A stretch of 54,405 nucleotides of DNA, filler included, from Streblomastix strix (GCA_008636045.1; 3 parts of 3 records of this genome joined end to end with filler, not necessarily neighbours in it), one strand, 5' to 3'. Shown: positions 1,308 through 32,939, counted from the whole stretch's first letter. A program made the numbers and translations. The notes: generated by a model from the letters alone, not told the origin.

Positions 1308-1389
1308 TTTTGTATCTGAAAAAAAGTTGAGAAAGACGATTAAAAGTTGATTATGATGATTAAAATTAGAATTTTTACAGCTTCGAAAT

Positions 1390-2301: not shown

Positions 2302-2362
2302 TTTAATTATTTTTAGAATTGAAGCGCTTTTGGCATTTATTTCTTAGTAATTTATTAGTATC

Positions 2363-5300
2363 ATGCGTGTAAATAATGATAAAAATTTATTAGAATCGTT
2401 GATATTAAGCGTTAATTTTCGACAATTTTCCATTTTCCAATAATTATATAGATTCCCAGTATTCTGAACAAATTGTATAAATTATTCAAAATATTGATTA
2501 GAATCGTTAGTATTAGGCGATATTTATCCAGAATGACCATTTTGGCTAGAATCGTGGAGAATTGGGTCCAAAACATCGTGAAGAAGCTAAGATACTGGAA
2601 AGCAGTTATCGTATAGTAGTTACGTTCTATATTAATACCATCAGTCCAACAAATACGTATTACAAAAATGATTTGAAAACGATAGGAGATGTTGATACTT
2701 ATTTAAATGAAATATATTTGTGTGAATTAAAATTTGCATTCAAAATTGCATTTGACTTAGGAATGTTTATTGAACGAGTTGATAGTTAAGAAAATGATTA
2801 ATAAGTAATGTATAAAATCAATCGTCCTCTTGGAGCTAGAACAGAGATGAAAGAACCGACAACCATACGCACAAATTTAGACTTAGCGGATTATAAAAGA
2901 TTCATTAGATACCATATAATTTAAATGTAAGAGAGAATAATAATGGATACCAAAGAAAAAATAGTAGGTATATTTTCAATAATGATTCAAATATTTAGAT
3001 TACCTCACGCTGGAGCTCGTAATCGAACAATGCCTTCATTAAAGAAGCATATTATGAAGCATGAAATAAGATATATTGACCATGAGAAAAATAAGTAAAA
3101 TTGATTTTTTTTGCTTATTCATTTATTTCGATGCCAAATATTGAGGCAAACGGTTCAGTGGTTGCAAAGTGTTATCAGTAACATTCACATATTGCAGCAG
3201 CAAAACGATTATTTTAAAGAATCTATGGAAATAAAATTGATGATAATTATTAGGGATTTAATTTTTCAACAGAAACAGACTAGTTTATTTAGTATGAAAA
3301 TTTAAATATAAATGTGTTCGCTTATGAAAAGACAATGGCAACCTCAACAGCAACACCAGCTAATTAAGGTAGTTCTTCGGGTAGTTATTATCTATGGAAA
3401 TAATATGGAAGAAATTATATAATGAAAAAACTAAAGAATTTAATATTCTTATAATAACAGACTCAATCACCGAATAATAAACGGCTCAAATTTTTTATAT
3501 TTATGATGCTGAGATATTAACTGGTTTAAAATATTGTCATATTTGTGATGTGCAGGCTTATAAGATTAGAGATTCAAATTTATAATCTATTTTAAAAAAG
3601 CAAAAATAATAATGTTAAAATAATGTGAGAAAAATAGTAAAAAAAGTATTTTTTGAAAGATTTCCAAGGCAATATGTTCCTCACATATTGAATAATGTTA
3701 GCTATATGAATCAACCGACATATGGTCAAGAGGATGAATTTAAACCTACAAAATATTATATATCATATGATATTGAAACCATTGAAAGAATCGTAAATGA
3801 AAAATTCGGTGATAGTTCAAAATAAATTTCAATACTTGAATTTATTTAGATGGCAAGTTCAATAAAAATAAAAAATAATTAAAATGATGGCTCTAATAAC
3901 GGATCAGCTGATTATATTTATTCCATTTATTTTAACATAAGTACCCCAAATTTTATTAATACGTGGATTAAATAGTTGTTTATGGAAACCAGAAAAGTTA
4001 TTGATTTAAATAAATATGAGGATGAGACGATACCATAGCATTACGAGGAACCAGTTATTGGCTTCAACTCTTCAAAATTTGAAGTTACTTTGATTCATAA
4101 AAAAATTTATAAAACGATGAATGGTAAATAATTAAATATCTTGGAACTGATTCAAACGCTAAATAAATCATTATTAAACATAATATTTCTGGAATCAAGT
4201 TGCGGTTCATCGATGCGATGATTTATTGTACAAAAATGAAATTATGAAAATTCATAAAAGATTTCACGCAAAAAGCTGATGAATTGAACTAAGATGCGAC
4301 AACTTCAGCCAAATTAAAGTTTCCATATGAATTAATCAACTACGACAACTATAATGAAATAATAAATAATCTTTAGCCATTTCCGATTAATGTGTTTAGA
4401 AATTTAATTAAAAATAAAAATATGTATGAAAGGAAATATTAAAATTATTTAACAATGTATAATTCATTGTAGAACATTAATGGTATCACTAGATGCCATT
4501 ACCTTCGATACTAAAACATTGAAGATACTCGCTTAACGATTCAGCCTTTGGATTACTTAATTGATATGTTCTTTTTTTAAAAAAATTGATATTTTGCTGT
4601 TTATGTCAATATTTGCATGCTCTAATGCTATCAAATATGCTGTTGTTTATATTGACTTCAAATTGGATAAAGATTTTATTCCAACAGACAATTATGCATC
4701 ATTCATACTTACATATAATTATTGGAAAATTAAAGTTTAATATTATATGGAATAAAATAAAAAAAAGAAATAAAGACACAAACAACAATATCAAAGAATC
4801 TGATTGTGTGTTCTAAAGAAAATTATTTCCATCGACAGGATGCCATATATGTAAAGCTCGAATAACAAGTAAAATTCTGCCAACATTAATTAGAATCAAC
4901 AACGACAAGGGTCAATCTGCAGATAATGTCAAACTGTGCAGCTAATTCCGTAAAAAATTAAAGTTGAATAAAAATGGAAATTTAACAAGATTAATAATTC
5001 TAATAATGAACTTTTGTCTGTTGAAGTCGCTTCCAAAGACAACAACTGATGAAGAAATTTATCAAATTTTACGTTTTGGAATCACAGATGGATTATCGTA
5101 AGTCATGCATCGTTACAATGTTGCAGGTGAAGCAAAAATAAATTATTTAAGATATATCAACAGAAAGGTCATCAGCTAAGACAAAGACTACAAAATGACT
5201 CATTTTTCATCACTTGATTTCAATTGTTAATATCCCAGCGTTATGAGCTCAGAGCCGCATAAGTTCATTAAATATTCAGGCGGCCGTATGTTCATGGCGG

Positions 5301-6290
5301 GGCAAATATTGGATAAAATTACTGATAAATAAACAGCAAGAAATTTAATTTATAATTCCCTTCTATTTAACGATGTTAAAGGAACGCCGTTATTTATCGT
5401 TGTTGTTAAAAGATATATAGATGAATAACATATTAATGATTTCATTAATTTTCTTCCTTTATTAAGAAACATAAATATTAAGACTGATTAAAAAATGTTA
5501 GGGTCTTACATGTATAATCTGCTGCTGAAAAATAACATGTAGCACGATAAAATTGAACGAAAATTAACAAATTTATCATCGACGCATGGATAGTTCATGT
5601 CGTTCAATAATTATTATTTATGGCTTCTCATTGATGATTTTCATTTCATTATTGACGATATTTAGTGTGTTATAACATTCTCGAAGCATGACATATTCAA
5701 TTCGTTTGTTAAGGAATTCATGAGTTAAAGAATTAAAGCAATAAATGAAAGGAATAATGGAAAATAACAATTCTATAAATTAGCTATGAACTCATGCTAT
5801 GGAAATGATGAGATGAATTATGAAAAATATTCGCAAACAAAATTACTGAGCTCTGATAGAACATGGTTGTCTCATCTCTAAGGACCATTCGTTAATGATT
5901 AACAATTTATAGAAGAATTATTTGCTGAATAATTTAATGCTGAGAGCTGCAACTGCAGCTCATGCTTCCATTCTGAACATTTCGTGTTAGATAATAGCAA
6001 ATATTGGCATATAAATATTATCTGTAATTTTATGGCTAGAATTTTCGATATGAACTTAATGCATTATATTTGTGGTGATACCGATTCAACGACATGGGCA
6101 ATCAGCGGGAGCCCAAAAGAGGATTACAGACAGAAGTTTAAATAAATCATAAAAGATTAGAAAATTTTCGATGAAAATTATCCCTTTTCTTCGGATAATA
6201 TAAACAATTATTAAGAGTCAGTTATGAGGCTGATGGAATAGCTTGCATTGCTCTAGCCCCAAAAATTCATTACATTTATAAACATATATT
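2363..6290 (+). pseudogene. Protein-primed family B DNA polymerase (Polinton/PLV type), frameshifted and C-terminally truncated
   Basis: ExoI SYDIET (~3765), ExoII GFNSSKF (~4060), motif A LDFNCQYPSVMSS (~5215), motif B KLAMNSCYG (~5780), motif C ICGDTDS (~6070), IALAPKIHY (~6250); several frameshifts and stops. Confidence 0.9.
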
Positions 6291-6299
6291 ATATTAATC

Positions 6300-6764
6300 T
6301 CTATGAAGATTGACTTTATCGATATATAGAGTAAGTATATTAACATTATTTATTTTAATATCTCTTAATGTTCTAGTGCCATCTTGCATAAATTTGCCTC
6401 AACATCCTTCATCTTCTGTATTAAGTAAAATTTTGTTTTCCACTATTTCAAATGTATGTGCAATAACTCTAATTAATTAATGTTCAGACAATATGAAATG
6501 GGCTGATTCTTTAATCATATGTTCATCTTCACTAATTATATCAGGTAGCCATCGACATACTGATGGATCAGGTATTATTATTTCTTCAAATATTGATGAT
6601 ATTCTTCTTGAACGAATAGATTAAACAGACACTTTATCTTATTCCTTTTCGAATGGTGAATCAAATTCAACTATTGCTGGAATTGTCGTTACGGACTAAC
6701 GAGGAGACATTTATTCTCTTTAACTTATTTTTTCAGATGGTGATACTGATCTTTTCTATGACAT
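6300..6764 (-). pseudogene. Hypothetical viral protein (MSQKRSVSPSEKIS...) with internal TGA
   Basis: Open frame under TAR=Gln, converging on the truncated PolB end. Confidence 0.45.
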
Positions 6765-6796
6765 TTATTCTTTCTAAAAATAACTAATTGATAATC

Positions 6797-7749
6797 ATGA
6801 ATAAAATGATAAGTTTATTGGAGTCTTTTCCTCTTCCTTAGTTAGCGTATTATATGCACTTACAGCAATAAGAAACAATCCAATGTTTGCAATAGTGATG
6901 AACACTAATGAAGTTCCAACAATTATATTGAATAGCATTTCATTTATTATTAAAAATATGCCAAAATAAACTATAAAAATTAACGAATTACCAATAACGT
7001 TCAATGAAGATGGATATGATTAAATAGGTAAGGTAATGGCTTTGATTGATGCAGATAGATTAATGTATAAGAATATTATGGATTCTAATTGTATTGTACA
7101 GGATATATTACCAAAAATTAATACTAATGATGCAATTGAATACCTTAAGAATAAAAAGGTGCCATAGATCGATGAACTATACTAAGCACTATTCAAAAGA
7201 GAGACATTTAGACGTTGTAGTGTATATGTTAGTGATAAGAATAATACAAAAATAATCTCTGCAGCTAACATTAGAATCCAACATGAAAATATCGTTCCAA
7301 ATGTGCTTTAATAGTTAGTGAACTTCGCTTATGAATGTGATTAATCAAATAAGATTATGGTTATGTTTACATGCTATCTGATATACGAACGCAATCATCC
7401 CCATGAAGATAGAAATGGAAGAATGGGACCATTATTGTTTCAAGAAAATATATATAAATTCGCTGAATCATTTGTTCCTCTATCGACTGCATTAAGATAT
7501 AATAAGAAAATATAACATTTAATGAATGAAATATTCAAGAGCATCAGTTTTGGAGAAATAATGAAGAAACAATAGATCAAGAGTGGTGATGCAGCTATCT
7601 ACAGAATAGAGATACGGGAGATAGATTTGAATAAATTTTATGAGATTATTAATGACAATTAACGAACAAAGCAAAAATATTACACATTAGATTTAGAAGA
7701 TAATATCTATAAACTAATTATAAGATTATTGAATATGATTAGGGTGTGA
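6797..7749 (+). CDS. Fic/Doc-domain protein, degenerate motif; start likely frameshifted (first in-frame ATG 6883)
   Basis: YERNHPHEDRNGRMGPLLF at ~7385-7440 resembles Fic consensus HPFxDGNGRxxR; homologous to 44926-45660. Confidence 0.8.
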
Positions 7750-8255
7750 TTTATTTGTGAGCATGTGAAGCCGAACGCATTGCCGCAGAGTAACGATCCC
7801 ATGCACAATAAAAATATAGAACTCAGCGATAGGAATTCCGTGCATCTGTTAACGATTTGTAACTCCTCTTGATTCGACGTCTTCAGAAAACTATCATAAC
7901 TAACGTACAGGATTTACTTTAAATTAATGATAAAATTGATCGTTATAACTAGCCAAATAATCAATGAGTTTGATTTATTTTTATTGTTTAATAAATGTAA
8001 CTCGACGGAAAGACTTTGATTAAAAAATAAAGAGAGAAAGGATATAAAACTAGTGCATTCATATAAACTGTAATGGATTAATGTGACGGTAAGATGTAAT
8101 AGCAATAGGCAAAAAAAATAAAGATATTACATTAATGAATCAAGATAATTGGACAAATAAGGTAAATTAAAATGGATTAGTTCAATAGATCAATGAAATT
8201 ATTTTTGTCCATTAACTTTTCCCATTAATGAGTAGTAATAATAATTATAAAAGTT

Positions 8256-8414
8256 TATGGCAGGGGTCCTATTTGAAATTGATCCATTTGTTCCACATAC
8301 TAGTGTGTATGTGCTAGAATCATAGATAATATTATATAAATCTCTAGATGGAATGTGGAACGGAACGGAACAGAAATTTTTGAGTTTGTGAAAAAGTGCT
8401 GCTATATGCCATAA
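8256..8414 (-). repeat. Inverted, diverged copy of ~165 bp iteron repeat A
   Basis: Reverse complement contains TTATGGCATATAGCAG, AAAATTTCTGTTCCGTTCC, CTAGCACATACA, GTGGAACAAAT, CTGCCATA as in the copies at 8638 and 11681. Confidence 0.8.
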
Positions 8415-8637
8415 TTTGATAATCTTTCATTTTGAATCCTAATTTGAATAGCTAGTGAACTTTAAACCTAAATTATACTGCCATAATAATTCATTTATGG
8501 CAGCCATCTAAATGTTCAGCTTTCAAAATTGTTCCACCTTCATTTTTACAAATATATTGAAGGATTTTTAATTATCATAGAATCATTCATTTCCAAAAAT
8601 AATGGTCACGTCTCCAATACATCACATAAATAATTTC

Positions 8638-8805
8638 ATTTATGGCATATGGCAGATGGCAGACAAAAATTGCTGGCGTCTCTAGGATTTGTTCCGTTCC
8701 GTTCCTTGTTCCACCTAGACAAATCACTTCATTTACCCACTCCACTAAGACACACACACTAATGGTGGAACAAATCCGTGTTCCATTTTCAAAATGCCTG
8801 CCATA
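8638..8805 (+). repeat. ~165 bp iteron repeat A (ATGGCAN x3, GTTCC x4)
   Basis: Direct repeat of 11681-11846; shares CCTTGTTCCACCTAGACAAATCACTTCATT and CTAATGGTGGAACAAATCCGTGTT. Confidence 0.9.
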
Positions 8806-11629
8806 AAAGTTTGGACAAAAATAAATTCATTTCATTCTTCTTTACCTCCTATACTACCTTTTCAATGAATTCATTATCTTCAATTATTTTCATATATTTT
8901 TAGTAATTCACATTAGATGTTTCGATATCCTCTTCACTCATCATTTTATCATAATATCTCAATTAATCTTTATTTAATTTATATATTCTAGTTCTTAATC
9001 CATTAATTCTTGGTGTTTATTCTGTAAATTTATGAATCATCGCATTCTTAAAAGTTTTCAATTATCAATTCTACGGTTTGTATTAATTTACAAGAGATAT
9101 CGGAATACCTTATTTGAACCGTTCGTAATGTTCCATAATAACATCATCTATTGGAGATCGACTAACATTTATCAGTCATTTCTTTGCTTCAGTCATTGGA
9201 ATTAATGTTGGATTGAACTATGAAATATCTCTTTCAAGTAGGAATGTCACTAAATTTTCATAAATCTCTTAAATATAGCTCTAGCTTAATTCATTAAAAT
9301 ATTCAACATCTTCCTTATATTTTTCACTCACTTAATGAACAATCTTGCAAGCGCATACTAAATGACGTCTTTCATCAATGCCCAATTATACAAACATATC
9401 AGCGTTTGTTACATAGATTATATTCAATACATTCTCAGCTGTTCTTCTTAGCTAATTCTTTTCATTAATTCTTATAGTTAGATCAGAAATAATTGATTTC
9501 ATTACTGTTGCAACACCTTTCTTTGAATCATTATAATTCATTATTTCATTCTATACTGCAAACTTTTTATTTTCAAGTACTGAATTGAATTTTCCTGTGA
9601 ATTCATCTATGTTTGTTATATTAGAGCAACTATATCGACTTGTTAGTTCAGCAATCACATCAGTGAATCTATTTTTACCTATTCCTTATCTACCTTGTAA
9701 TACGATTGTTGTTCTAGACTTTTTTCCAGGATTTTGTATCAACCACGCCATCCAATTAAGAATATATTCATAAACTCGTTCATCACCCGCAGCAATAGTT
9801 TCTTTATTCAAATCAAGGTACATTTACAAGCATTCATAATCAATTGTATCTAATTTCTTATATTTATACCATTGGAATACTGTGAGAATCTTTGGATCTT
9901 CACTTATGAATTTACATCCTTTCTTAACAAACTTTTGAAGCATATATTTTAAAGATTTGTTTTACAGTTATTGGTTTTGAGTTATCTTTTTCATCAGTTT
10001 TCTTATTCTTGAAATTTTTATTAATTTTCTCTAATTATTTATAGACAGTTCCTTCTAATTTATGATATAAAACTTATGTATCGCAAATAGCATCATATCT
10101 TTTAATTGCATATATATCTTCAGTTTCACCTTCATAGTATACTAATAATCTTGTTAAATCCATAACAATTTATTCTTCATTTTCATATTCTCCATTAGCT
10201 GCTTTCTCTTACATGTCAAGTAAAGTGAAATCATCAGTTAATTCAATTTTATTTGGAATCAATGTCAAGTTAATTAATACTTATTTTTCCTTCTTTTTTG
10301 CTTCATAATTCTTTTTCAATAATGGTTTAATTGTCTATTCGTAGTAATCTTTATTATGGTATCTTAAGATTTTTGTAAGGATCCATGGATTTGGTTTGCG
10401 TTCATAATTAGATTAAGCTTATCCATAGTTCTTATCAGCGTTTACAGTTAATTTATTGAATTTACGTATGTTATCTAATCCTTTAGCTCTAATAGATTCA
10501 TTACTTATTTCATATTACCCACAGAATATGCTTAGAAGAGATACTTCCATATTGATTGGTTGTGGATAGTTATATATATCAAGATTCTTCAATCCATCAA
10601 CACACGTTTATGCAAGTTTATCATTCATTTATTCAATTGCACCGTCTTCATTGATTTATACTCCATATATTCTATCGTGTTACTATTATGCGTAATCCTT
10701 ATATGACATCTCAATATCTATATTCCATTTGTAAAATATCTCTCGCAAGCTCGCTAAACGTGATGCATTTCCCCAATCATTAACTGCTTCATATTTGAGT
10801 GTAACTCGTTAGTTATTTTTAGTTTCTCGAATAGCTGTGTTTGAAGCAACTACTCGATTCTGTAGTATCTCATTTGTCTCATATCCATTTTCAATTTTAT
10901 ATTAAATCATTTATGCAAATACATCAATATCAAAACTATCTGTTGTAGCTATTTTTACATTACGATTGGAAGGTAATCTATAATTGTTTCTATTTTAATA
11001 GATATTTAATCCTCTATGAGTAGTCTTAACTAAATCTACATTTAATGGAAGTGAATCAATTAGATTTTATCTTATTTTATCGATTTCTTCAATTGATTTA
11101 TCCTTATGAATATCTATATCAACAACACATAGATTATCTTCATCAACTAATGATAAATCAATTAATTTGCCTGTTATTTATTATTTTTTACTTTCCTATT
11201 AGCTTATTTTTGTATAGTTTACTGTATTAATCATAACATCTTTAACGCGTTCAATTATTGTTTTTGAATCTTATTCTTACATATATGATTTTGCTATCGG
11301 TTGTATCATTTCAAGAAATATATTATCATTTAATTTTTTTTCTAATCTATATGTTAATTTCTAATTTGAAATTCTTGTTTCAAGATCACTTCAGAATTAA
11401 TTAGATCATGAATGAATTCGTCATATTTTTCTTCAATAATATGCTTATTCGTAGGTTCATTTGTCTGTTCATTTGTCTGTTCATTAATCATTTGATCAAT
11501 CATCTCTTTTGCTTTCTCTTCTGCTTTCGATTTGCGAATATATTTACGTTTTGGTCCTTTCTCAAGTGTCTCACATTTCACATTTGTTTGTTGGTTTGAT
11601 TTGCCTTTTGAAAATTCTTCTGTTGCCAT
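8789..11629 (-). pseudogene. Prim-Pol (bifunctional primase-polymerase) + PriCT-like + D5/SF3-like helicase, ~945 codons, with internal TGA stops
   Basis: N-terminal VVDIDIH and VKTTHRGLNIY primase motifs (~11000-11130); Walker A IVLQGRQGIGKNRF (~9665-9710); FAVQNE Walker-B-like; TGA at ~9066 and ~9178. Confidence 0.85.
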
Positions 11630-11680
11630 TTTACTTTCGGATAAAAAGTTCATATAGTTTCTTAAAACAGTTTTTATTTA

Positions 11681-11846
11681 ATTTATGGTATATGGCAGAT
11701 GGCAGACAAATTCGTCGGCAGTTAAAATTTCTGTTCCGTTCCTTACCTTGTTCCACCTAGACAAATCACTTCATTAGCCCACTCCGCTAGCACATACATA
11801 CTAATGGTGGAACAAATCCGTGTTTCATTTATAAAGAGGCTGCCAT
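11681..11846 (+). repeat. ~165 bp iteron repeat A, upstream of the primase-helicase
   Basis: Direct repeat of 8638-8805; inverted relative to 8256-8414. Confidence 0.9.
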
Positions 11847-12442
11847 ATTTCATTTGCAGGGACAATTCACTTCATTTATCCTCACCATTAAATTTTTTCA
11901 TTGTTCCGCTTAATTCGACCGAATCATCAGTCTCATTGCTAACTTTTAACATCATATTTGTGATCAGCATATGAACATTAACTAAGAAATCAATTTTCAA
12001 ATCAATCAGAAAACATTAATTTTTCATTATATATTTTGATTTTTTATTACCTATATATTATTTTTAAAATAATTAAATAGGACATAGAAATCTCTAAAAT
12101 TTTCTCAATTTTTTATATCTCATTCATACTCTTCACTAAGGTCATATCGTATACGGAGAATTCAAAAATGATATTTATTTGTAATTCTGGACCAATTTGT
12201 CACCTTCAATTTCTTCAATTAACCTTAATTTTTATATACATTTTCCATATAAAATATTTCTTATGATTCGTCCATACGATTAATCATTTTTCATTCCCCA
12301 TGTGTAATTGAAAAACCTTGGAGATCCCCCATATTTTCTTACACTGTTTTACTACAAATAAGCAATAAATTTTTAATCTTTAAAAAATTCTCAAAAACAA
12401 AATAACTGTATAAGATTAAATTCATAAATTAATTCCCAAGTA

Positions 12443-12764
12443 TAGTAGGCAAAAGAATCTCACTGCACAATGTAATTTAACTCAAAAAATTAACTTATTG
12501 CATTAGTGATCACCATAAATTATTACCATAAATCCTTCTCATTTTTCATTTTTACCTATTTCACACCCATAAATTATTTTCATAAATCCTATATATAAAT
12601 TATATCAATAATTCATATTCAAAAAATATTTTTATTATTTATTTTTCACTGCTTCTACTGATAAACTATTTTTATTTTTCATTACAATTAATTGTATCCA
12701 CTATTGTTTTTCCGTTATTTTTAAGTTTTAATTCCATAGGGCAGTGAGATTCTTTTGCCTACTA
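12443..12764. mobile_element. MITE-like element with 24 bp perfect terminal inverted repeat
   Basis: TAGTAGGCAAAAGAATCTCACTGC (12443-12466) and its exact reverse complement (12741-12764); AT-rich non-coding interior. Confidence 0.7.
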
Positions 12765-14157
12765 CTATGGTAAATTTCAAAGAGATGAATATGAGTTTGA
12801 AGTATAATAAGATATCAATGATTAAACGTATAAAGTTCATTATAAAATGAGTCTATCAGAGTTCATAAAAAATATCTTTAAAATTGCAAAATAAAAATAT
12901 ATCGATGCTATGACAAAGAAAGTTGATGAAATAGTTATTGAAAAACGAACTGTGGCAGATTTGTATTATTATTATATTTCAGTTTAATCATAATATGAAC
13001 CTTCAAAATAAAAAATAAATAAAAAAATAAAAAAATTGAAAAAGACGCATAATAAGCGGTTTATATATCCAGCCAGTAATCTGCTTAAGGTGGCGATAAT
13101 GAAAATATGCCCTATTTTCCTTTCAAAACAAAATGAAAATTGGTTAAGAAAATAAATTAACATAAATATACAAACAATAAATATGTATCGGAAAATGATT
13201 ATAAATTAAAACCATTATAAAGGCTAAAACGACTTTATTTCTCTGTAAAGTTAAAAAGTTGGGAAATAGATATAGTTTTTTCAATCGATTTAATCTTGTA
13301 AAAAAACAATGATAAAGGTGATGATGCTATCTTTGAATAAAATAAAGTATAAAATATATGAGAAAAAAGAAGAAAAACAATTATATATTTATTTTTTATA
13401 AACATTAACACATAATATTTAGTGATATTTCAATTGATAGATAAATCAGCAGCATAAGTAGTTGGATAACTATAAAAATTAATTATAATTTTTATGTGAA
13501 TAAAATTAGTGGTGATAGTGAGAAAGGATTTAATAGCTCGTGTTTTGCATTTTTTGTCCATAGAATAAAACTAATGGATATTTCACTGAATCAAAATTCA
13601 CTAATCATAATCGAGTTGTCGAATCAAATATTCGTACAATATGGAATATGTTTAGTTAAAAATTTAATTATTTTTCAATAATTCAATAAATGTAAATAGT
13701 AGTTGATACATACAATAATACACAACATCTTGCGTTTCAAAATAAGTATAGTCCGTATTAAGTTTAATTATTAAGAGATTTAGAAGGATAGTATATACGT
13801 TCATAAATGAAGAAATTAGAGCGATAATTAGCAAGACAACGAAAACACTGCATATTGTCATTTAAAGTAGGAAGCATAATATTAATACATCTTGATTTCT
13901 AACATAATAAAATTTTATGAAATAAAGGCAAAATTCCAATAAGTTAGCGGAGGTTACTCGATACGTAAATGGAAATGTTTTATACAGATCATTGAATCAT
14001 TCATATAAAATAAATATAACAAAAATACCTTCATTTTATTGTAAATATGTAAGTAAGAATATATAATCTCTTCCAGAATATTTTGCTTCAGAGTTTTTAT
14101 TTAGATGAAATAATAAAAATTTATTTATTTATTTTTTAACTTTTTTTCCCATAATAA

Positions 14158-14514
14158 ATGGCAGCTATTGAGACAATCAACGATACAACCAATTAATCAT
14201 TACAAACTAAATCAGCCGCAAGCGAAATCTACGACAAAGTGTTTTCAACAAAACAAGGACGTCAAAAGAAATATATCGATAAAGAATAAGCATTTATTGC
14301 TGCTAGAGAACAACGCAAAAATGTAGGAATTAGAAACGAATAAGATTAAATAAATTATGTTTCTAAAGTTAATTATATGCAACTACTCATAATAAAAAAA
14401 CTTAAAAAATTAATCGAAATTTTAAACAATTTGATTATAATTAATGAGTTGATTAAAAAGAATGAAAATAAATTAGGCATTAATGAAGATATTAATGATT
14501 TAATCAACATATGA
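14158..14514 (+). CDS. Small basic 118 aa protein with AT-hook-like KQGRQKKY motif, possible DNA-binding protein
   Basis: ATG..TGA in frame with TAR=Gln; sits on the other side of the iteron inverted repeat from the second primase-helicase. Confidence 0.55.
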
Positions 14515-14669
14515 AACGCTAATCGATTTGTTTTTTCATGTGTGTAAGTGTGCAGAGTTGAGACCCCTAAAATGGTCAAAATATAAAAAATTGGTCGGTA
14601 CGTCGGTCGAATTTATTTTTGTGTTAGTATATGTGTTAATCATGGTAATTGAATCTAAATGTCCACTTT

Positions 14670-15150
14670 CATTATTTCTGTCTTATTTATCTTGTACTTT
14701 TATATGTGATGTTCATTAGCTATGGAGAATTAGATCTAAATTCAATACAAGACAGAAAGACAAGACAAGAATGAAAAGTAAAAGATACCAAAAGTTGCGG
14801 GACATACAGACAGTTAAACAGATTGAGATTCCATCCTTAATTCGACATAAAACATATTGGAATGAATATTATAGCTTAGAACCAACATAATCGGTACAGA
14901 TATATGTAAACATATTGATTCTAATACATCAACTATATATCATACATTATTTTTTACAATCTGTCCAACTGTCCATCTGTCCATCAACTTTAAACGATAA
15001 AATTTTTTCTGTCTTATCTTGTCTTTTCTGTTACAACTAGGATTTCACATTAATCTTCCATGGCTAGTGAACATCACTGATATTATTAAGACAGAATAAG
15101 ACAGAATCTGTCATAACAAATATTTCACATTAATTCTCTATAGCTCATGA
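14670..15150. repeat. Imperfect inverted repeat B (~14670-14830 vs ~14960-15100) with GTCTT/AAGAC pentamers and CTGTCCA heptamers
   Basis: GTGATGTTCATTAGCTATGGAGAATTA (~14706) pairs with TAATCTTCCATGGCTAGTGAACATCAC (~15051); AAGACAGAAAGACAAGACAAG pairs with CTGTCTTATCTTGTCTTTTCTG. Confidence 0.75.
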
Positions 15151-15159
15151 ACAAAAATA

Positions 15160-16740
15160 ATATTCATTCATTTTGTAAAATATTCAGTTGAAATTTCTAT
15201 TTTCTCTTATTCCTCACGTAATTCATCTTTATCTAAATCATTCATCATATCATCATAAATTGAATAATTTTCTTCTAGTAATTTATATACCCTAGCTTAT
15301 TTTTTATCAATATATATTCTTTGCTCAGTACATTTTTGCAAGATCGAATGCTTGAAGCTTCGTTCATTGCAGTTATTTGGTTTCATTAAGCTTACCTCTG
15401 ATATTGGAATGCTATCTTCAAATTTCTAATAGTTTTGATAATAATATCATCAACTGGTGTTCGACTAACATTTAACAAATATTTTTTTGCATCAATCATA
15501 GGAATATTGGTTGGATCAAATTTTGAAATATCTCTGTTTAGGAAGAATGTTAATAAATTATCATAAAAATCTTTATCCATTCTTTTGCTCAGCTTATTGA
15601 AATATTCATGATCTCCTCTATGAACTGCTTTGCATTTTATCACTAAATAGCGTCCATCACTATTATCCAATAGGATTGAATAGTCATTGTTAGTTAATAT
15701 AATTGAATTGATTACATTCTCAGCTCTTCATTCTGGTTAATTATTCTCATTAATTCTTATAGTTCTATCTGTAATTATTGTCTTCATTGCTTGTGCAGTA
15801 CCTTTCTTGGACTCGTTATAATTCATCATTTCATTTAGAACTGCAAACATTATATTCTCAACAACTGAATTGAATGTTTCTGTGAATTTTTCGATTGTAG
15901 AAATGTTTGGTTGACAATATAGTGAGAACATTTCTGAAATAGCATCTATGAATCTATTTTTACCAATTCTCTGAAGTCCTTGAAGAATGATAGCTGTTCT
16001 AGGATTTTATCCAGCAATTTAAGCAATGAATGCAATCCAATTAAAAAAATATTCAAAAACCTCTTTGTTTCCACCTGCTATTGTTCCATATGTCAGATAA
16101 TTAATGAACATATCAATCTTTGATTCATCAACTTATTCTAATTTTTCATACTTAAATCCTTGAAAGACATTGAATACATTCGGATTATCTGAATTGAATC
16201 TAACTCCTTCAACAACATATTATCCACTATATTTTTCGAAAATATCTTATACTGTTATATGTTTTTTACCATCATCCCATAATCTAATTATGTGCATTTA
16301 TTCATATGCGTTAGTCTTTGTTTTTTAGCGTATTACATTAGTCTCTTATTAAGCATCATATTCTTTGATTATAAACACTAATCCAGATTCACCAGCATAG
16401 TATCTAATTACGTTAGTTAAATCAGTTGCAATATCTACTTCTTATTTATACTCTCCTCTTGTTACTTTCTCACTTATGTTTCCAAATATGAATGAATCAT
16501 TGATGTCAATTCCTTATTTTTCAATCATTTCCAGATTTATTTCATGTTTTGATTTATTTTTTTTTGTAATCTCTTTTTGAACAATGGTTTAAGAGTTGTT
16601 TCGTAGTATTCTTTGTTATGAAGTTTAATAATTTTCGTTAGTATCCATGCATTAGCTCTGCTGGAATATCTTCCTTTTCTATCGCTCCAATGTTCATTTG
16701 CCTTAGGTGTGAGTATATTATTTCTATAAATATTCAAAGA
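15160..16740 (-). pseudogene. Second D5/SF3-like primase-helicase, 5'-truncated (primase domain absent), frameshifted
   Basis: WILTKIIKLHNKEYYETTLKPL, Walker A ILQGLQRIGKNRF (~15950-15990), FAVLNEMMNYNESKK, DGRYLVIKCK; clear paralogue of 8789-11629. Confidence 0.85.
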
Positions 16741-18075
16741 AATTTATGCCAAATCAAATAGAAAATGCCATATAAATGCCAGTGATCATGGCATAGCGTT
16801 AAATGTTATAAATTTAACAATCAAATAGTTTAATTCGCATATATTTTTATTTTTACATATTAAAAAACAGTAATTAATATTGTACAATAATTAATATTAT
16901 AAATATTTTATGCATTATTGAAAAAAAAATATTTTTTCATTTCGATGATTTTAAACTAAATAGAAAGAAAACAAAATATTTAATATTAAAAAAATAAACA
17001 TTACTTCATGCTTCAACAAAACATTCAGGTAAAAATATATTTTCTGAATATAACATTCTATGATATATATACGTTCAGATTTTAGCAACTCTCTTTACCA
17101 TCTTCTTCGTTTAATACGATTATAAATTCATGTTGGCATATCATAAATTCTATTGTACATAAAGCAGAAAAATATTATTTAATTATAATTTAAATTTAAA
17201 AATTAGGTATTAGTATAAACATATTTTAATATAATTAAGTTAAAAAGAAGTTCTAAAAATTATTGTATATTATATAAAAAATAAATCTAAATATAACAAA
17301 ATAATACCTGAATAAACAACTGAATATAAAATTTAGCATTATTTTTATCTACATCAAAAGTTACTGCGGTTTTAAAAGATGCAAACATAAGAGCTGAAAA
17401 TGAATGAAATACAAAATAAAAATATGCAAAATGTTAATAATATAAATAAAATTGTAATACATTTCAATACTGGACAATTTTAAACAGTGAATAATTACAT
17501 ATCGATTCATAATCTCGAATTTAATGAAAGTAGCTGAATTTAGGATGAATTCTAAATAATTCGAATTATTTGCATAAGCGGAGAATAAAAAAAATTAATT
17601 CTGTAAAATTAAATTAAATAAAGAAATTTATCTATCATAATAAAGACGTTATGTTAATATTTATTTCGGTTAGGTTAACTGAAGCCAATGTGCAAGTATT
17701 TATTTTCCTATATAAAATTAATATTATGAATATTTGGATAAAACATTAAAAATGACAACTGCTAAACTAGATTTTTGTAATTAAACAATAATTTAATATT
17801 AATGCTCATACTTATAATAAATTTCTTAATTGGAGATGAATAACAATAGATATCGTCGAATAAAATAATATTTTTTTATTATCCATTTAAAGCTTTATAT
17901 GCATATATAAATTAAATTTTAAATTATTTTTTATAAATATAATAATTGATTAAAAACATTTGGATATATTGGCAGATTGGAATGACGAACTGCTTACAAA
18001 ACAAGATTACAATCAAGTTACACCACATCCACTAGACCCAAATCTATATCGAATAAGATGTGAATTTTTCAATAA

Positions 18076-18175: not shown

Positions 18176-20337
18176 CGAAGAAACGTACGGACGCTGGAAT
18201 ATCTTGCACAAACACTGGTTGTTATTCTCCATTAACAAAAAAGTGAAGTGTGTGTTTTTACTAGTTTACTTCCATCATCAAAACATCTCCATCTCCAAAA
18301 GTAATATTTCCTTTTGTCAAGTTGTCATTATGAAAAACATACCCTCTATAAAATAATAATAAATTAAAAAATTAATTTTTTTGAGAATATGACAAAATTA
18401 TAATATGCAAACCATTCAAAATAATGAGCATTGTCCTTTGTTACTGGATGAGAAGTGAAAAATATGAAGAAAAATTATCATTTAAAAAATCGTTATATTC
18501 AAACTGCCTTTTTTTTGAGGATGATATTTTGCTGTAATAACAGCAGAAGAACTAATTATACCAACAGCTTTATAATATTATTATTAATAAAAGAATGAAA
18601 TTAAGAAGAAAATTAATAAAAAAAAAGAATAGTAAACCACGTTAATTTGTACAGTTGATGAATTTAATCTCACAGCGCATGATTGATGGAGGTTTAATTT
18701 CTTCTTCAATGGCAACAGTTCGATTTCCATTCTCTTCAACAATAACTCGCACACCTTCACCAGTAATCTCAGCACTTGTACTAACTGCTTTCTTGTCTGG
18801 AATAATTAGTTTGATGCTCCCAACTATAAATAAAATAAAATATATCTTTTAAGGAATAATTCTGTAAACCAGTGCGAGGCTATGTAGAATATTTTGCAAT
18901 CTATCTCATTAAATCTCCATTTGTTTATATGAGTATTTATTTCTCTTCTTCAGTTCTCCTAACGCGCTCTTCTGCTCTAATTCGATCTGATTCAACTCTT
19001 TGTAATTGATATTCAAGTTATCTTTTCTCTCTCTCCAAATCTTCTACTTTCTTCTACAATTGAGGATTTTATAATCCTTTTCCAGAAACTTACTTTCCAG
19101 ATGAACCAATTTTCCCTGCTTCACCTTCAAGAATATATGTCAGCATCTTAATCTTCATTGATGTTTCTGATTCACCTTTTAATGATACTTTTGTTGTTGA
19201 TGCTCCTTTTGACGGAGTTTCTTTCTCATTCATGCGCTCTCTTAATATTGGGAGAAGTTCATAAACAACTGGTTCTGAATTTGCTGCACATTCAACAAGT
19301 TTCAATATCACTGAAAGTGGCGAGATTTTAATGTGTTTTGGTAAAATTTCTCCTCCTTCTCATTATTTTTGAAGGGCATGATTAATAATATTCAAAAAAC
19401 CATTTTCTATTAAACTATCTATAACTTCAACGGATGAAGAAATCAATTCGCATAGATCCTATGAAGCAGCCTTGGAAACAACGACTGAAGCAGACTGTAA
19501 AAAAAAATAAATTAGAATAAGGATAGCATCAAGCATACATGAACCAGGACAACGAATGGAATGGTTACAATTTATTTCTTCACAACGCTGCCACATATCT
19601 CTCCTCGTGCAGCAATAACTTGAGCAAGAGCAAGGGCACCGAGTTGAGAATCTTGGGGATTTTCATCTCCGCCTCTCTCTCGCAGGATCTAAAGTAGACC
19701 AGCATTTGTAATAACTTCATTGGAGCTTGATTATAAAGAATCATTAGAATCTGATTACAGAATATAAATTTACGCAAAAAAATCGAGAATTTAACGCAAA
19801 ATAAACAAAAATTTTTAAAAAAGATAATACTGGCCGTCAAAAGAGCTACAAGCTATAAAAATACAGCATGAAGTTATGCAGGATCTTTACACGTCTTTAT
19901 AAAAAAAATATATGTTTACTGATATCTTCACCCTGTTGTGAAATGTTATGTATGATAAAAAACGTTGAATTAACCACGCGGAGCACACTTATACACTCTC
20001 AAATAAGTCTACTCCTGTTGTACTGCAGCAGAGAGTATCTTTCTCCTCGTCGCTCATGACCGCTATTTACGTCGAAGACCTGCTACAGACACACCTGCAA
20101 GCTCCGCAAGTAAAGCCAACTGATCCATATCCTCTTTTGGAGAGCTCCTGTTAGTTAAGAAATCTGCAATAGATGGAGAAACAGCTGCAATAACATCCTA
20201 CGGATGTAGATATATCTCCAGCTCTTAGAAAAAAACGAATAGTATTTTCATTATTATTTTTTTTATATAAACTAAATTAACAAAATAGAATGATTACAAT
20301 GTTTTAATCTTGTAAATTTCACAGTTCCAAAGTTCAT
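18176..20337 (-). CDS. Multi-exon host gene, ARM-like/coiled-coil region plus C-terminal SPRY-like domain (3' truncated; exon structure partly unresolved)
   Basis: Exons separated by short GT-AG AT-rich introns; C-terminal GDGDVFMMEVNQQKHTLHFFVNGEQQPVFVQDIPASVRF is SPRY-like. Confidence 0.55.
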
Positions 20338-20387
20338 TATAAATCATAAGGTTATAATATATTGATACAACTTATTATGCATTATAA

Positions 20388-23300
20388 TCACATTTAAGTA
20401 CCACTCACTTCACGCACCCAGTGTAAGGTGTCACTATCAAGAAGAGAAGAAACTCGCGCAAATCGTTTCTTTCCAAGTTATCTAAGGAGTGATTATGTAA
20501 GTTGGATGCATTCTGTAATCTCATCTTCATCATCATCCGCTTTTTGGACAATTGGATTAGCTGCTCCAAGCAATGCAATAGTCGCAACAATAAATAGTAG
20601 ATGTGCAGCGTTACGAATCACACCTTGTGGCATTAAATCAATAGCTCCCTCATCATCTTCATCTTCTGTTTTAGCTTATCTGTCATTTCCAGCTACTTAA
20701 GCATCATTTTATTATCCAAGTGGACCAATTGAACCAAAAATAGTCTCATCACCATGCCTAGCCATTGCAAATAGAAGTCTGTGTTGAATATTAATCTCCT
20801 CAGAAATGGCTCCAATGAATCGTTAGCTACTCGATCGAATATCTTCAGTGAGTTGAGAGTTTGTATTAGAAATAGATGTTGTACTAGTGAGTATTAAACC
20901 CTCCATTGGTAATGCATCAAACCAAACTTGCTTTGCAAGGGCAAGAGCTGTTATATCGAGATGTTCTTAGTGAAATACCAGCACTCGACCAAGAGCACTT
21001 GTTAGAGCATCTCGAGATTCTATTTCCTCTTCATCTTCCTCATCGTTATCCACACATTCTTCTGCATTTGCAAGAGATTTGGCAACTACATCACTGTCAC
21101 TTGATGAATCACTGTCACCTTCTTATTCAGCTTCTTTATTATTATTTAAAATTAATTCTGTTGGTTTTTTCTCAGACATTTTTTATTTATTTTTGCTACT
21201 GGCAAAATTATCATCATCTTCTGAATCACTGCTATCATCTCTATAATGTTTGTTACGAGCCTTTGATTTTCTACCATTAAATTCATCTTTCTCAAATTCT
21301 TTTTTATTATTCTCCCTCCCCAATTTATCACCACATAAAGCCTGAGCTATATGTCCTACTGCAACATCAGCAAAAGGAGCAAAGTTTTCTCCTCCATATT
21401 GTGCAAATACAGATAATGTATAAGCAGCATGTGTGCGTGTTGAAGCAGGAATAGCAATTATCTGATTGGTTTCCTTAGAGACAATCTCACTATGAATAAA
21501 AGCCAATACTGTTGGTACAAGAGCTCTTACAAGAGGACCAGCCATTGCACCTCCATATTTGACTACTGTTGCAAATACCATCAATGCAGATGTTGTGTCT
21601 CCAGGAGATGATTGAGGAGTGAGGAGAGTTGAAAACGGTAAAGAAAGACGTTGAAACGCTGTTAGAAATAGTTCACCGTGAAATGCAGTAATAATTGTGA
21701 CTATCTTTGAGATTAATTAAATGTTCGCTTATTCTACAATAATCTATGACACAGAAGTCACTGAAAGAGGAAGTGGAGCAACTTACTATAATGAATTGAA
21801 TGACTATATGAAGAATGGCGCAGTTGATCCTGAACCTGTGAATGTTGTATTTCTGGGTAATATATTTGGAGGAAGATCAAATCCTAACCTGAGTCTGTCT
21901 CTTTATTGGGATTAAATACCTTTATAATTGTCTTATATTCGGATTAGTGTGATTCCAGAGGTTGAATCATTATTAGTTGTCTTACTTGTTATGCTTCTTC
22001 GTCTCTCTGCTATACTTGCAAGTGCATTTGAGAGTATTGCTGCATGTCTTCCAAGAATATTATCTTTGAAAGGGAACATTGGAACAGCAAAATTATCTTC
22101 TTGTGTATCTAAAGCATTGCAATCACAACTAATTAGAATTGTATATATAGTGAATAGGAGAGTGTACATCATATCTCCATCTTCTTCATTAGTCAGAGGT
22201 AAAATAACTGCATTATAAATTGCTCTTATTAAATTATGCAGTCTTTCTAATTCTTAATCAATTGGAGATTATTAATTCCCAGCAGTTCCATTCTCTTGAT
22301 TAGAATCTTTAGGAATATCAATTGATTGATTTTAATTAATTTTCAGATCTTAACCTTCATTATTGTCCTTGTCCTTATCCTTATCCTTATCCTTATCTCT
22401 TTCTGACTTAAGGAACTTCGCATGAGGCATAATTGTGTATTACACCAGATTAGACAGACCAAGTGCAGCTGACATTCTAATATCCGTTGCTTGGCTCTTA
22501 TGGAGAGCTCGACAAAGGATTTCTTGTGTTTATTCTACAATTGATTATATATTGGATGTCTTAGAACTATTTGACACATTTTAAGAAGATTAGTTGTCTT
22601 AGCCCTTTGGAAGATTTTAAGCAAATAAACTCGTTCCAAGATTAGCTATGTAACTATATAGGATTTTGATTGAATCAAGTTTACTACATAATGCTATTCC
22701 TTCAACTTCAATAGTCTTTCCTTCAATTCTCAATAGTTGAAGTGGACTATAAACATCATTCAATGCTTGTGAAGAATACTAATTATTCTCCTGACCATCT
22801 TAGTTCTTTAAAGAGGGTCCTTTTGATTGAAGGCTCTTTAATAGATCTTCATCTTGTTTAGATTTCAATTTATCTTTCTTTCTTGGTTGCTTTCTGAGAC
22901 TAATAGCAGTTCTCACAGCTGGATTAGATGATACAGCTTCAAGGAGTGGAGGAATTGTTATATCAATGAATATAGAGAATTGAGATTTTAATACTCTACA
23001 TAACTTCACAAATGCTAATTTAGTTATTGGAACTCTGGGATCGTCACTTTGTAAATAAGCTGTCTTTATATTCTTCAGTATTGTTAATGGTGAAGGAATC
23101 TATGATGTACTATTCCCTGATACTGATTCAACTCCATCTAACAAATCTGATGAAGATGAATTATTGCTGACTTTTGGAGTGAAGTGGATTAAAAGAGATA
23201 AATAAGCCCAGATTGAAGAAATCTATGGAAACTTTGAATTAAGAATCTCTTCTCCTTTCTTCATTTATTCTGAAGTTAGTTTTATTTATCTGTTGTCATC

Positions 23301-25748
23301 TGTGCTGTTTGAGAGGAAATATTGAACAGCTGATGTCGCTATGGGATTTTCAGGAGTTTTATTGTTTGATTGTTAATTTAGTGCATCTTAATTTTCATCA
23401 GGTAAGTCCCAGGACAGAAGTGAAGTAGAAATACAATCAATCATTGATGCTTCTAATTCTCTTCTTTCTTCTTCATCATCGATTGAATTCAGAATCTTAC
23501 CTTTAGTTTTATATTATGGATCATTTGTTTCTTCATATAATATAGCTTAAACTAATTCTAAGATTATATCATTCAAGAATTCAGTAGCTAATACTTTTGA
23601 AAATGGAGCTCTTGCCAAAATAAGAGTGGCTAATGTATCCAAAGATTCACGTTTGATGAGAAGAAGAATGCTTTGAGTGTATGTATCCTCATCATATAAT
23701 ATTTATGTGATACCTTTGAAATAAACCTCAAAGTGGTTTGCAAGAGTTGATGAAGGGAGTTCATCAAACACAGTAGTTGCACATCTAAGAGCAGCCAAAG
23801 TAACTGAAGGATGTATTTTATTTCTTTCTCCTTATTTATCATCTCCAGTTTTGAATCCTAAATATCCAATAAGAGAAGGATGGTATAGATCATATCTTCT
23901 GGTTGTGTGTTATGAACCAAATGTCTAAGCAACACTTTTGATCGCTTCAAATGCAGCAACTTATACTCTTGGATTTTCATTTGGATCTGAAGCAGCATTA
24001 CAAACATGCCTCAAAGTTGTGAAATTGAATTGAGCCACAATTTGAGGTGATATCATTGATGGATTTAATGAAGATACAAATGTTGGCATTGCTGGAGTAT
24101 CTTCTGTTTCTGTTGCTATTAGATTCTACCCATCTCCACCAATTGATATTTAGTCATCACTATCATAGGACATCAATGTTGCAAGTGCACTTCCTCTGAA
24201 TGCATCAACTAAGGCTGCAAATATGCTGTGTCCAATCATTCTATGAAGCCATCTCTAACTCAACTGATTAGTTCTGATGACTGGCATGAAACATTGGACA
24301 AGAGATACACCAGCTGGAAGGATTGTAATTTGAATATAATATATGTAAAAATAATAATAAAACAATAACAATAATATAAACATATAATTTAAAAAATAGA
24401 TGAAAGAAAAAAATAGTACAAATACAATTATTGCTTATCATCATTCTAGCAATCATGGTTATTAATCGCATTGCATCTTTACAAATTATATCTTCCTCCA
24501 ATTTCTAAATAAATACAATAAATCAATAAAAAGATTTCAATTAAATAGATCTAAATCATACCAGATTAACATCACTCAAAACATGAAGCAACTGTGTCTA
24601 ATCCTGTTTCTTATCTTTTTCTTTTCCCTTATCAGAATCATCTCCAATAATCTTTGAGTCTGCACTTCCAGCCATCAATTGAACACAGGCACCAACAAGG
24701 GTCATCTCATAACTGGCAACACGACGCACTTCATTTGGAGCAACTTCAATTAATCTCACTAACATCTCTAAACAACTCTTTCTTGTTTCTGAGATTAGTT
24801 ATATAATAGTATTTAATTCATTAATATATACAATTTGTGATATATACCATAATTAAGTTCTTTCATTGTACCTGCCTGAAGCATAAGTTGAACAAAATTT
24901 GGTGTTTCAACCCCAAAAAATGGTGGATCAGCTAAAAGGATCAATTATATAAATAGAAGTTTATTAATTATAAATTATAAATTATTATTAATATTCAAAC
25001 CCTCTAATAATAGATATATTGTTTCAACCGCCTTTCTTATACTCTTTCCTTCTCTGAATCCAACAATATCAGCAAAAAGATCAACAACTGGAGTCTTCAA
25101 ACTTCTGAGAATCTAAACAGCTTATTCATTCTCACTGAATGCATTCATCATAGGATGTATACATTTCATAGCAGATAATCTCACTTTGGTGTTATCCTTC
25201 TATTTCACACATCGAGTGAGCATCTATCCAATATCAGCAATATGCTTTGAAAGAGATGCAGCTTATAATGCAGAGAGATGATAGAATACATCCAGTGCTC
25301 CTTCTTATAATTTATCTCCTTATTTGGCTTTTTCAAAAAGATATGGTATTAAATCTTCCCATAATAATCCTTCCTCAGCTAATAGAAATGATCCTAATGT
25401 TGCAACTAACTCATTGACTGATGCAAAAATAAATTTATTCGTCTTATTGCCCTCAAAGAAATAAATTGATTTTGCTTTAAGTTATTCAATTGATTCAGGA
25501 GACAATCTTGATTTTAAAGATTTTTATGAAACGAGACGAATAAGCATCAACCGCAAATAAACACATGCTGCATTTTGTACTCGAACATCTGATGAAGATT
25601 CAATAATATTTACTAGTGAAGCGCTGAGCTCATTTGGTTCATTCTGAATTAGTGCAATGATTTTGTTTTCTGCGCTCTCACGCTGAAGTTTGAGTGCTGA
25701 TTAAACATCATATAAAAGTGACTCAAGAACATTCAACGAACCCAACAT
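20388..25748 (-). CDS. Importin-beta family karyopherin (importin-5/4-like HEAT-repeat protein), several introns
   Basis: N-terminus RESAENKI...DVRVQNAACVYLRLML (IBN_N-like); HEAT motifs SDPNENPRVQVAAFEA and SDDPRVPITK; introns ~24320-24410, 24500-24560, 24800-24850, 24945-25000. Confidence 0.75.
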
Positions 25749-25869
25749 TGCAAAAGAAGAGAGTATGAGACTAATGAATATTCCCAAATATTATAAATCA
25801 TAAATAAAAATAATATAATAATATTTCTGTTTTGAACATATTTCTGGCGTGAAACGAAATTTATTGAAG

Positions 25870-26240: not shown

Positions 26241-26377
26241 TTTTTTGAATAATTATTCATTTATAAAAACTTTTTTTATGAAATTTTAATTTTAGTATTA
26301 AAAGGATAATTTTCTTTTAAATTTTATACTAAATAGGATGAGTGTAAATGAACTCATTGTTTATACTTAAAATAATA

Positions 26378-26745: not shown

Positions 26746-26774
26746 TTATTTATTTATAATATTTTTTATTAAAG

Positions 26775-32845: not shown

Positions 32846-32939
32846 TATGGAACATATATTGTTTGACAATCAGCTCATTTTTTATATTCAATTTTAATAA
32901 CTCGTGTAAATAAATGTCATTAAATAAAATGTGAAGTGA

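Follow-up and report, generated by a model that had tools for sequence, protein, structure and literature searches.

Each of two degraded primase-helicase genes of the protist Streblomastix strix is followed by a pair of inverted arms composed of short repeated words, and we interpret these paired arms, with a probability of about 0.65, as an iteron-type replication origin of the adjacent primase-helicase, whose predicted winged-helix tip would read the words, with word and tip changing together. By analogy, they are best read as an iteron origin of the SaPI/PICI pri-rep-ori type that would have diversified into several specificity groups within a Polinton-like family. The window, i.e., the whole stretch of 54,405 nucleotides that was analysed (GCA_008636045.1), consists of three contigs, at 1-18075, 18176-36250, and 36351-54405, with N linkers between them.

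Genomic context of the primase-helicase genes

Translation with table 11 gave 3 ORFs of at least 100 aa, and genetic code 6 (TAA/TAG = Q) opens the reading frames. The oxymonad S. strix harbours endogenous elements of Maverick/Polinton-like type that use code 6, according to the available text of PMC10120064. A search with gene 2 returned S. strix proteins in 9 of 10 matches, the top one at 86%. The first contig carries a polymerase, a Fic-like ORF, gene 1, and gene 2 (Table 1). The polymerase had no match in the Pfam search; by its motifs it is presumably of family B, and the motif of the neighbouring ORF is presumably Fic-like. A replicase of the kind found in Polinton-like viruses or Maverick EVEs (pPolB or primase-helicase) is present according to Pfam and PHROG, and neither a double jelly-roll capsid nor a packaging ATPase was identified on the 18-kb first contig. 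Between the two primase-helicase genes lies an inverted pair of 70% identity (12443-12533/12674-12764).

Several further features were observed on the other contigs. The region 36514-46971 of the third contig resembles another Maverick/Polinton-like element and includes a KilA-N domain (Pfam E 7e-12); its ORFs 38630-40595 and 44226-44972, which had no Pfam or PHROG match, are by resemblance presumably capsid-like and ATPase-like, respectively. The end of the second contig (35263-36250) holds nested near-perfect inverted repeats (87 nt at 100%, 88 nt at 93%, and 60 nt at 85%), which may represent either a small element with TIRs or the product of fold-back joining. An inverted repeat pair of ~390 bp (26376-26765/33631-34021, 89-98%) flanks 6.9 kb of host-looking genes, the enclosed ORFs being presumably transporter-like and RNA-binding-like, and a divergent direct repeat (25793-26195/34685-35077, 72-79%), with copies 8.9 kb apart, is located where two host-looking genes have their 5' ends.

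The primase-helicase genes and their protein family

Both genes encode DUF5906, and read in code 6 both are pseudogenes; the prim-pol domain is missing from gene 2, which starts inside the helix bundle and contains two frameshifts and an in-frame TGA. In the clade B proteins inspected (gene 2, P0001, P0264, and P0269), the Walker A motif reads GLQRIGKN rather than GxQGIGKN, and since its Arg is common to the clade B relatives, it is not a lesion of the gene 2 copy. The TGGCA words at the point where gene 2 is cut off on its 5' side are perhaps the start or remnant of another arm, fused by deletion or by a chimeric join.

The profile search collected 123 proteins, and all 120 among the matches listed belong to S. 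strix. Standard-looking relatives at 30-57% were found in environmental collections, and relatives also occur in Monocercomonoides and Histomonas. Four proteins named 'Poxvirus D5 protein' (P0361, P0369, P0373, and P0398) come from Monocercomonoides exilis (contigs of at least 0.5 Mb) and Histomonas meleagridis. The 2.4- to 4.5-kb contigs of the environmental relatives were considered as small circles, an idea that we rejected because the choice of full-length proteins selects for that size. In a metagenome scan that was guided by a low-complexity 17-mer, 0 of the 120 loci examined encode the protein; scans of viral and prokaryotic genome contigs returned one weak 43-residue match (L121, E 5e-4) and nothing else, and in phage records the helicase matched at only ~27%.

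Sequence searches matched the NrS-1 polymerase at E 1e-36 and, weakly, the prim-pol domain of pRN1 ORF904 (E 0.02-0.1). The AlphaFold model of the intact paralogue P0011 (pLDDT 89.9) matched the NrS-1 C-terminal region in Foldseek (E 9e-19), as well as ASFV PrimPol and the SaPI proteins PriRep1/PriRep5 (7pds/7ola; E 3e-10 and 7e-10). The models show the intact paralogues as a predicted succession of prim-pol domain, helix bundle, SF3 helicase, and winged helix that is nearest to the NrS-1 polymerase and SaPI PriRep. The modelled C-terminal domain (CTD) of P0298 (pLDDT 84.1) consists of helices followed by a terminal beta-hairpin, CSQIQRTN-NG-QRKRFYKM. The top rows of a structure search with this domain were mostly MarR/PadR-type winged helices, with scores such as Z 7.5, the highest (rmsd 8.1 over 98), and Z 7.2 (rmsd 3.2 over 80), and Foldseek returned no match for it at E<=0.001. 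A winged helix is thus the predicted fold of the CTD, at Z values of only 7-7.5 that are nevertheless consistent across rows.

Four helicase clades, A-D, were set by 75% identity to a reference. In a 29-row tree, clades A, B, and D are well supported and clade C less so, with clades A and B separated at 99/98 and 97/95 support; the N-half of clade B is distinct too (33-46%). The N- and C-terminal halves form mosaics, as in P0013: its N-half shares 83% identity with gene 1, and its helicase 47% with the gene-1-type P0003.

Architecture of the paired arms

Past the stop of each gene, two inverted arms of ~150-170 bp, which begin within ~30-60 nt of the stop codon, surround a spacer of 131-212 bp to form a paired block of 430-560 bp, and both blocks are located between convergent ORFs. 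From the centre outwards, an arm is composed of three heptamers, a spacer, a pentamer cluster, CTAG, a core of 23-26 nt, and inverted words, with a second CTAG-like word usually sitting between the core and the inverted words. Every arm is an imperfect palindrome in itself, by virtue of the inverted words past CTAG.

An earlier note on this DNA had described paired inverted repeats of this order 3' of both genes, and both pairs are well beyond chance: 0/500 shuffles reach the score of the inverted pair A and C, and 0/500 reach that of D and E, which are 70.5% identical over 156 nt. The 3' block indeed occurs at both genes, but the description has to be amended for arm B, which lies 5' of gene 1, and for arm E, which is degenerate (heptamers CTGTTTA/CTGTCTG/ATGTCCC) and contains no exact CTAG. 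The words given there, ATGGCAG and GTTCC for copy 1 and CTGTCCA and GTCTT/CTGTC for copy 2, are those seen in arms A and D. In arm D, CTGTCCA at 14961/14969/14977 is followed by a 25-nt spacer, CTGTCTT/ATCTT/GTCTT at 15009-15025, CTAG at 15037 and 15064 (CTAG-N23-CTAG), and inverted AAGACAG words ending at 15094 and 15104. Heptamer and pentamer of copy 2 share the core CTGTC and so may be one word. A presumed resemblance of TGTTCCACC to the P4 iteron carries no weight in our reading.

Table 1. Features of the window discussed in the text, in order of position.
Feature	Position	Strand	Remarks
Family-B-type DNA polymerase, broken	3131..6313	+	4625-6313 matches PHROG 1907 (DNA polymerase), E 6e-7
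ORF with Fic-like motif	6493..7749	+	47% identical to 44926-45660 of the third contig
Arm C	8252..8420	-	Copy 1 distal inverted arm; GTTCC x3
Copy 1 central spacer	8421..8632	.	212 bp, 73.1% AT
Arm A	8633..8805	+	ATGGCAT/ATGGCAG/ATGGCAG, spacer, GTTCC x4, CTAG, inverted GGAAC + CTGCCAT
Gene 1	8832..11629	-	Prim-pol / helix bundle / SF3 helicase / winged helix; full-length but broken; clade A
Predicted wing hairpin, gene 1	8984..9025	-	TEQTPRINGLRTRI
Arm B	11676..11847	+	Repeats A directly (83% over 176 nt); located 5' of gene 1
Arm E	14676..14825	-	Copy 2 distal inverted arm; GTCTT cluster
Copy 2 central spacer	14826..14956	.	131 bp, 75.6% AT
Arm D	14957..15106	+	Copy 2, gene-proximal
Partial extra arm-D core	15107..15164	+	74% identical to 15027-15084
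Gene 2 remnant	15168..16734	-	Helix-bundle end, SF3/DUF5906 helicase, winged-helix CTD; clade B
Predicted wing hairpin, gene 2	15288..15329	-	TEQRIYIDKKQARV
TGGCA words	16745..16795	-	x3 (plus one on +), without pentamer cluster; at gene 2 5' truncation

The symmetry of A and C runs on to about 8192/8831, and the copy 1 spacer encloses a small palindrome, CTGCCAT-N12-ATGGCAG, at 8478-8503. The first heptamer of arm B is 56 nt from the gene 1 ATG. Beyond arm B lies a partial repeat of the arm core (11861-11891); the same piece opens the gene model P0115, where it precedes a copy-2-type arm, which suggests a fixed upstream boundary at which cassettes would be exchanged.

The distances in arms A/B/D are 14/14/16 nt from first to third heptamer, 33/32/32 nt from third heptamer to cluster, 26/26/28 nt from cluster to CTAG, and 56/56/57 nt from CTAG to the end of the inverted word, i.e., the spacing agrees between copies to within 2 nt. 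In contrast, the similarity of arm D to arm A is at chance level (111/500 shuffles; 18/500 for whole block versus whole block), in line with the claim that the layout is kept while the words differ. The 26-nt cores between the CTAG words of arms B and C are likewise equal in length and unrelated in letters.

Two-strand 5-mer enrichment was reached in 0/300 shuffles for each block, and both blocks rank within the top 4 non-overlapping places among 525 windows of 600 bp, although two unrelated windows match or exceed their enrichment score. An exact 7-mer triple occurs once in contig 1 and 0 times in each of 20 shuffles. The AT content of the spacers (73-76%) is higher than that of the arms (58-69%) and about equal to the contig background of 73.5%. 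Rfam gave 0 matches in 7700-17000. A fold-back artefact of assembly or amplification was rejected by inference, given that the arms are 70-83% alike rather than identical and recur in other gene models.

Variability of the predicted wing

We measured variability as the share of non-consensus residues in the 14 wing columns compared with 135 other windows of the C-terminal half. The wing scored 0.30 versus 0.11 for the rest in clade A (27 rows, one of which, the mis-spliced P0125, raises the value slightly), 0.16 versus 0.04 in clade B (6 rows), and 0.31 versus 0.11 in clade C (28 rows), with 0/135 windows as high in each case; in clade D (7 rows), it scored 0.14 versus 0.06, with 2/135 windows as high. 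The predicted wing is the most variable C-terminal stretch in three of the four clades, and it falls into discrete recurring types: 50 different signature strings were counted among the 87 complete wings, and 10 of these recur. It speaks against a special role of this variability that the wing of a winged helix is commonly a surface hairpin of variable sequence.

Peptide traces of arms at other loci

Arms at other loci were followed through peptides back-read from error-prone gene models that run into flanking DNA. The window flanks were matched by 12 of the 450 collected proteins at E<=1e-4. The wing is reached by 234 proteins, 17 of which have tails of at least 40 residues; 10 of these are from S. 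strix, of which 9 carry a trace that is either arm-like or periodic and the remaining one enters the neighbouring region. Several word types occur across loci (GGAAC, GGGAC, AAGAC, and 9-nt repeats), and the words of one arm change together.

Arm A is reproduced with GGAAC words by P0253 and P0261, and arms D and E by P0354, with a gene-2-type helicase adjoining; P0419 has the outer words of arm D next to a gene-2-type wing. Upstream arms were seen in P0115, P0320, P0069, and P0059: P0115, whose N-half is of gene 2 type, has a copy-2-type arm positioned as arm B, and P0320 and P0069 (and likewise P0402) keep the arm B core with GGGAC in register. Two cluster words of P0320 both changed from GGAAC to GGGAC, the register with arm B being reached in 0/40 shuffles. 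For P0375, AAGAC words in a copy-1-type arm are the best explanation of the peptide in a codon-aware test (0/60 shuffles against arm B, 8/60 against A, and 6/60 against D, three arms being tried), with a non-significant result at the protein level (43-104/300 shuffles).

Periodic traces include (CPE)3 in P0283 and P0038, accompanied in P0283 by (TQD)3; one 9-mer and its reverse complement explain both repeats of P0283, for which 28 of 2680 cyclic tripeptides are compatible, and ATGGCA-compatible peptides lie between them. P0048, of the same clade as P0283 and P0038 and with a different wing, shows (SMH)3. P0299 has a TGTCCA-compatible 9-nt repeat, and its tail had no significant match to the window arms in shuffle tests (best 10/40). 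In P0283 (4/300 shuffles) and P0402, the block is oriented opposite to the gene.

Possible correspondence between words and wings

Wing and word could both be read at 11 loci, namely the two window genes and nine traces. Word type agreed with wing class in 55/55 pairs and with helicase clade in 47/55 (p=5e-6 when shuffled freely and p=0.067 when shuffled within clades). Because the wing classes were drawn post hoc, kin share labels, and the two features are linked, this match is suggestive only; less than 400 bp separates the wing from the downstream words, and the two would be carried along as one in any case. The peptide traces lead us to infer that word type follows wing type. The proposal of the earlier note that pentamer identity tracks clades of the CTD thereby shifts: an origin-like layout and words that appear to co-vary with the CTD are retained from its idea of initiator-origin co-evolution, but it is the wing that varies as a unit, rather than the clade of the protein.

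The word AAGAC is found both in clade A (P0375) and in clade B (gene 2 and P0419), and these wings share R-x-Y...Q; P0375 is the only cross-clade case, and its match to arm B is weak. Four further traces, in which no wing is visible, are equivocal or speak against the match. For three of them, the nearest wing-bearing relatives predict other words by about 1-3 points: P0354 (AAGAC) is nearest to P0264, whose wing predicts another word (91.1% versus 90.1%, a near tie), P0320 (GGGAC) to TPR-wing proteins (94.3% versus 93.6%), and P0115, with GGAC-like words, to a DKKQ-wing protein. The fourth, P0059, carries the copy-1 word TTGTTCC upstream of a clade D C-terminus.

The differing wing residues are at -4, -2, +2, and +4 from the turn and, by strand alternation, would form one face of the hairpin. 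Arg with G and Gln with A are common base contacts, and the tendency of wing Arg to go with G in the word and of Gln to go with A fits them. A more specific scheme, which we regard as conceivable but rather doubtful, is that the family carries a replicon cassette able to load and prime itself, whose origin specificity is set by these four residues, with the code reshuffled between helicase clades, giving at least 10 orthogonal initiator-origin pairs per nucleus, with ATGGCA/CTGTCCA read by the primase half. Its tentative code for -4/-2/+2/+4 would be T-R-R-R = GGAAC, R-Y-R-R = GGGAC, R-Y-Q-R = AAGAC, R-T-R-W = GGACAC, Q-Q-R-F = ATGCA, and Q-T-R-R = TGGACA. The heptamer ATGGCA is constant over several wing types and differs only in clade B, and therefore another reader is needed. 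A primase site is read by the helix bundle in NrS-1 and ORF904, as the accessible part of PMC8718748 describes. From this single contrast, the heptamer may be a site of that kind or, alternatively, a host-factor site.

Discussion

The closest functional parallel to the proposed origin is the pri-rep-ori module of SaPI and PICI (SaPI5 PriRep5, SaPI1 Rep1, and SaPIbov1), rather than iteron plasmids, to whose incompatibility groups the earlier note likened the system; the copies here are integrated and mostly broken. As far as the available text of PMC9371898, PMC6092414, and bioRxiv 10.64898/2026.10.17.759575 goes, the two have in common a primase-SF3-winged-helix initiator with an origin directly 3' and penta- to heptanucleotide iterons in two opposed sets, each with an inverted copy, whose letters vary between elements. 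In the portions seen of PMC9371898 and bioRxiv 10.64898/2026.10.17.759575, the SaPI origin lies directly downstream of rep, its penta/hexanucleotide iterons have opposite orientation, and the wing reads them through the major groove; wing strands contact bases in SaPI, and reading by the wing is predicted for the S. strix proteins.

There are also differences. The present element is endogenous to a eukaryote and uses code 6, its block measures 430-560 bp versus ~300 in SaPI, each arm has two word classes and CTAG pairs, and there is an extra 5' arm. The spacer AT is close to background here, at least 10 wing types recur in one genome, phage-satellite genes are absent, and the sequence is nearer to NrS-1 than to SaPI Rep. 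The inverted iteron of SaPI5 lies at 15-17 bp in the account available, versus 56-57 nt beyond CTAG here. The frames follow code 6, the relatives are those of S. strix, and the prokaryotic genome contigs contained no related locus; the origin would work like that of a PICI, and the element itself is not a PICI, a class of bacterial islands with an integrase, a repressor, and packaging by a helper phage.

By analogy to SaPI5 PriRep, one hexamer would load per arm, with the inverted word setting its orientation; the DNA would melt between or within the arms, and the enzyme would prime itself, extension falling either to the PolB encoded nearby or to the prim-pol domain of the enzyme. Arm B is absent from the SaPI plan. 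More speculatively, its overlap with the promoter would allow autoregulation, or as a direct repeat it would let the cassette be exchanged, either of which would explain its presence. With many elements residing together in one nucleus, diverging words and wings would be favoured, such that defective copies could neither use nor titrate the initiator of a relative.

Other systems share single aspects. The NrS-1 primase-polymerase-helicase (DUF5906) is the best match in sequence and structure and has the same domain order; a role of its CTD in origin recognition is reported as not addressed in the accessible text of PMC9371898. In Polinton-like viruses and other Polisuviricotina with AEP-SF3 modules, inverted repeats beside the primase-helicase have already been proposed as origins, in the part of PMC11296320 at hand, and domain-level mosaicism and repeats bracketing a second replicase beside PolB, taken as a sign of mobility, recur in the portions available of PMC11296320, bioRxiv 10.64898/2026.10.13.758929, and PMC10120064. 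In contrast to the present arms, these published accounts, so far as their text was available, present no word-level layout or wing-word match; the term 'iteron' is absent from PMC11296320, as is 'winged' from bioRxiv 10.64898/2026.10.13.758929.

Among other explanations, we consider it improbable that the arms are simply the ends of a mobile replicase cassette, with C and B as terminal inverted repeats, C-spacer-A as a nonautonomous derivative, and the words and CTAG as recombination or transposase sites. Arms on both sides of gene 1, the upstream arms of P0115, P0320, P0069, and P0059, and the reversed blocks of P0283 and P0402 speak for it, as do the repeats around Polisuviricotina AEP replicases, which the accessible passages of bioRxiv 10.64898/2026.10.13.758929 and PMC11296320 take as signs of mobility. 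However, the cassette contains no recombinase or transposase, visual inspection of the outer ends of arms C and B showed no target-site duplication, and the tracking of the wing by the word is left unexplained; moreover, the models P0048, P0059, P0136, and P0376 run into one common neighbouring region, so the cassette neighbourhood is fixed. Cassette ends are compatible with an origin in the same arms.

It is quite unlikely that the arms are functionless tandem and inverted duplications, the words differing because the flank of each lineage drifts, is homogenised by gene conversion, and hitchhikes with the end of the gene beside it. Every copy here is a pseudogene, the mosaicism of N- and C-terminal halves reflects frequent recombination, and the within-clade test was non-significant, as such a history would have it, but it accounts poorly for a spacing held within 2 nt despite lost similarity, for the preserved core length in B and C, and for separate word copies that change alike. 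We give equally little credence to the words being operators or promoter/terminator elements for the winged helix or a host factor, serving transcription control rather than replication. The position of arm B 56 nt before the ATG, with similar spacing in P0115 and P0320, the resemblance of the CTD to MarR/PadR regulators, and the location of the blocks between convergent ORFs would suit this role; set against it are the symmetrical paired block 3' of the gene, where the SaPI and pRN1 origins sit, and the winged helix fused to the SF3 ring, which in SaPI Rep is the origin-binding domain according to the published text available. That each arm is a single-stranded stem-loop origin of the pRN1 type is very unlikely: ORF904 shares the order of prim-pol, helix bundle, and SF3 domains, has a 100-nt stem-loop origin downstream of its gene in the available part of PMC4234260, and the arms are imperfect palindromes, but the structure matters in pRN1, whereas single-strand DNA folding of the five arms on both strands gave z of +0.6 to -2.3, and copy 2 arms (-0.2 to -0.9) fold no better than shuffles.

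We retain the iteron-type origin as the preferred reading. The literature searched, which covered few subscription papers, contained no word-level origin or wing-word match for Polinton-like elements. The principle is known, its design having so far been worked out in bacterial phage satellites; the domain of life is new, and the diversification is unusual. So far, the origins of Polinton-like virus primase-helicases were a guess based on where inverted repeats lie; here, a likely one is resolved to the level of words and tied to a candidate recognition surface. For the design of orthogonal replication systems, it would be of interest to have primase, polymerase, and helicase in a single protein together with several orthogonal origins. 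If the wing-word match is true, one protist genome would represent a natural library of matched initiator-origin pairs, on which origin-specificity diversification among competing elements, the swapping of replicase modules, and wing-based DNA reading could be tested.
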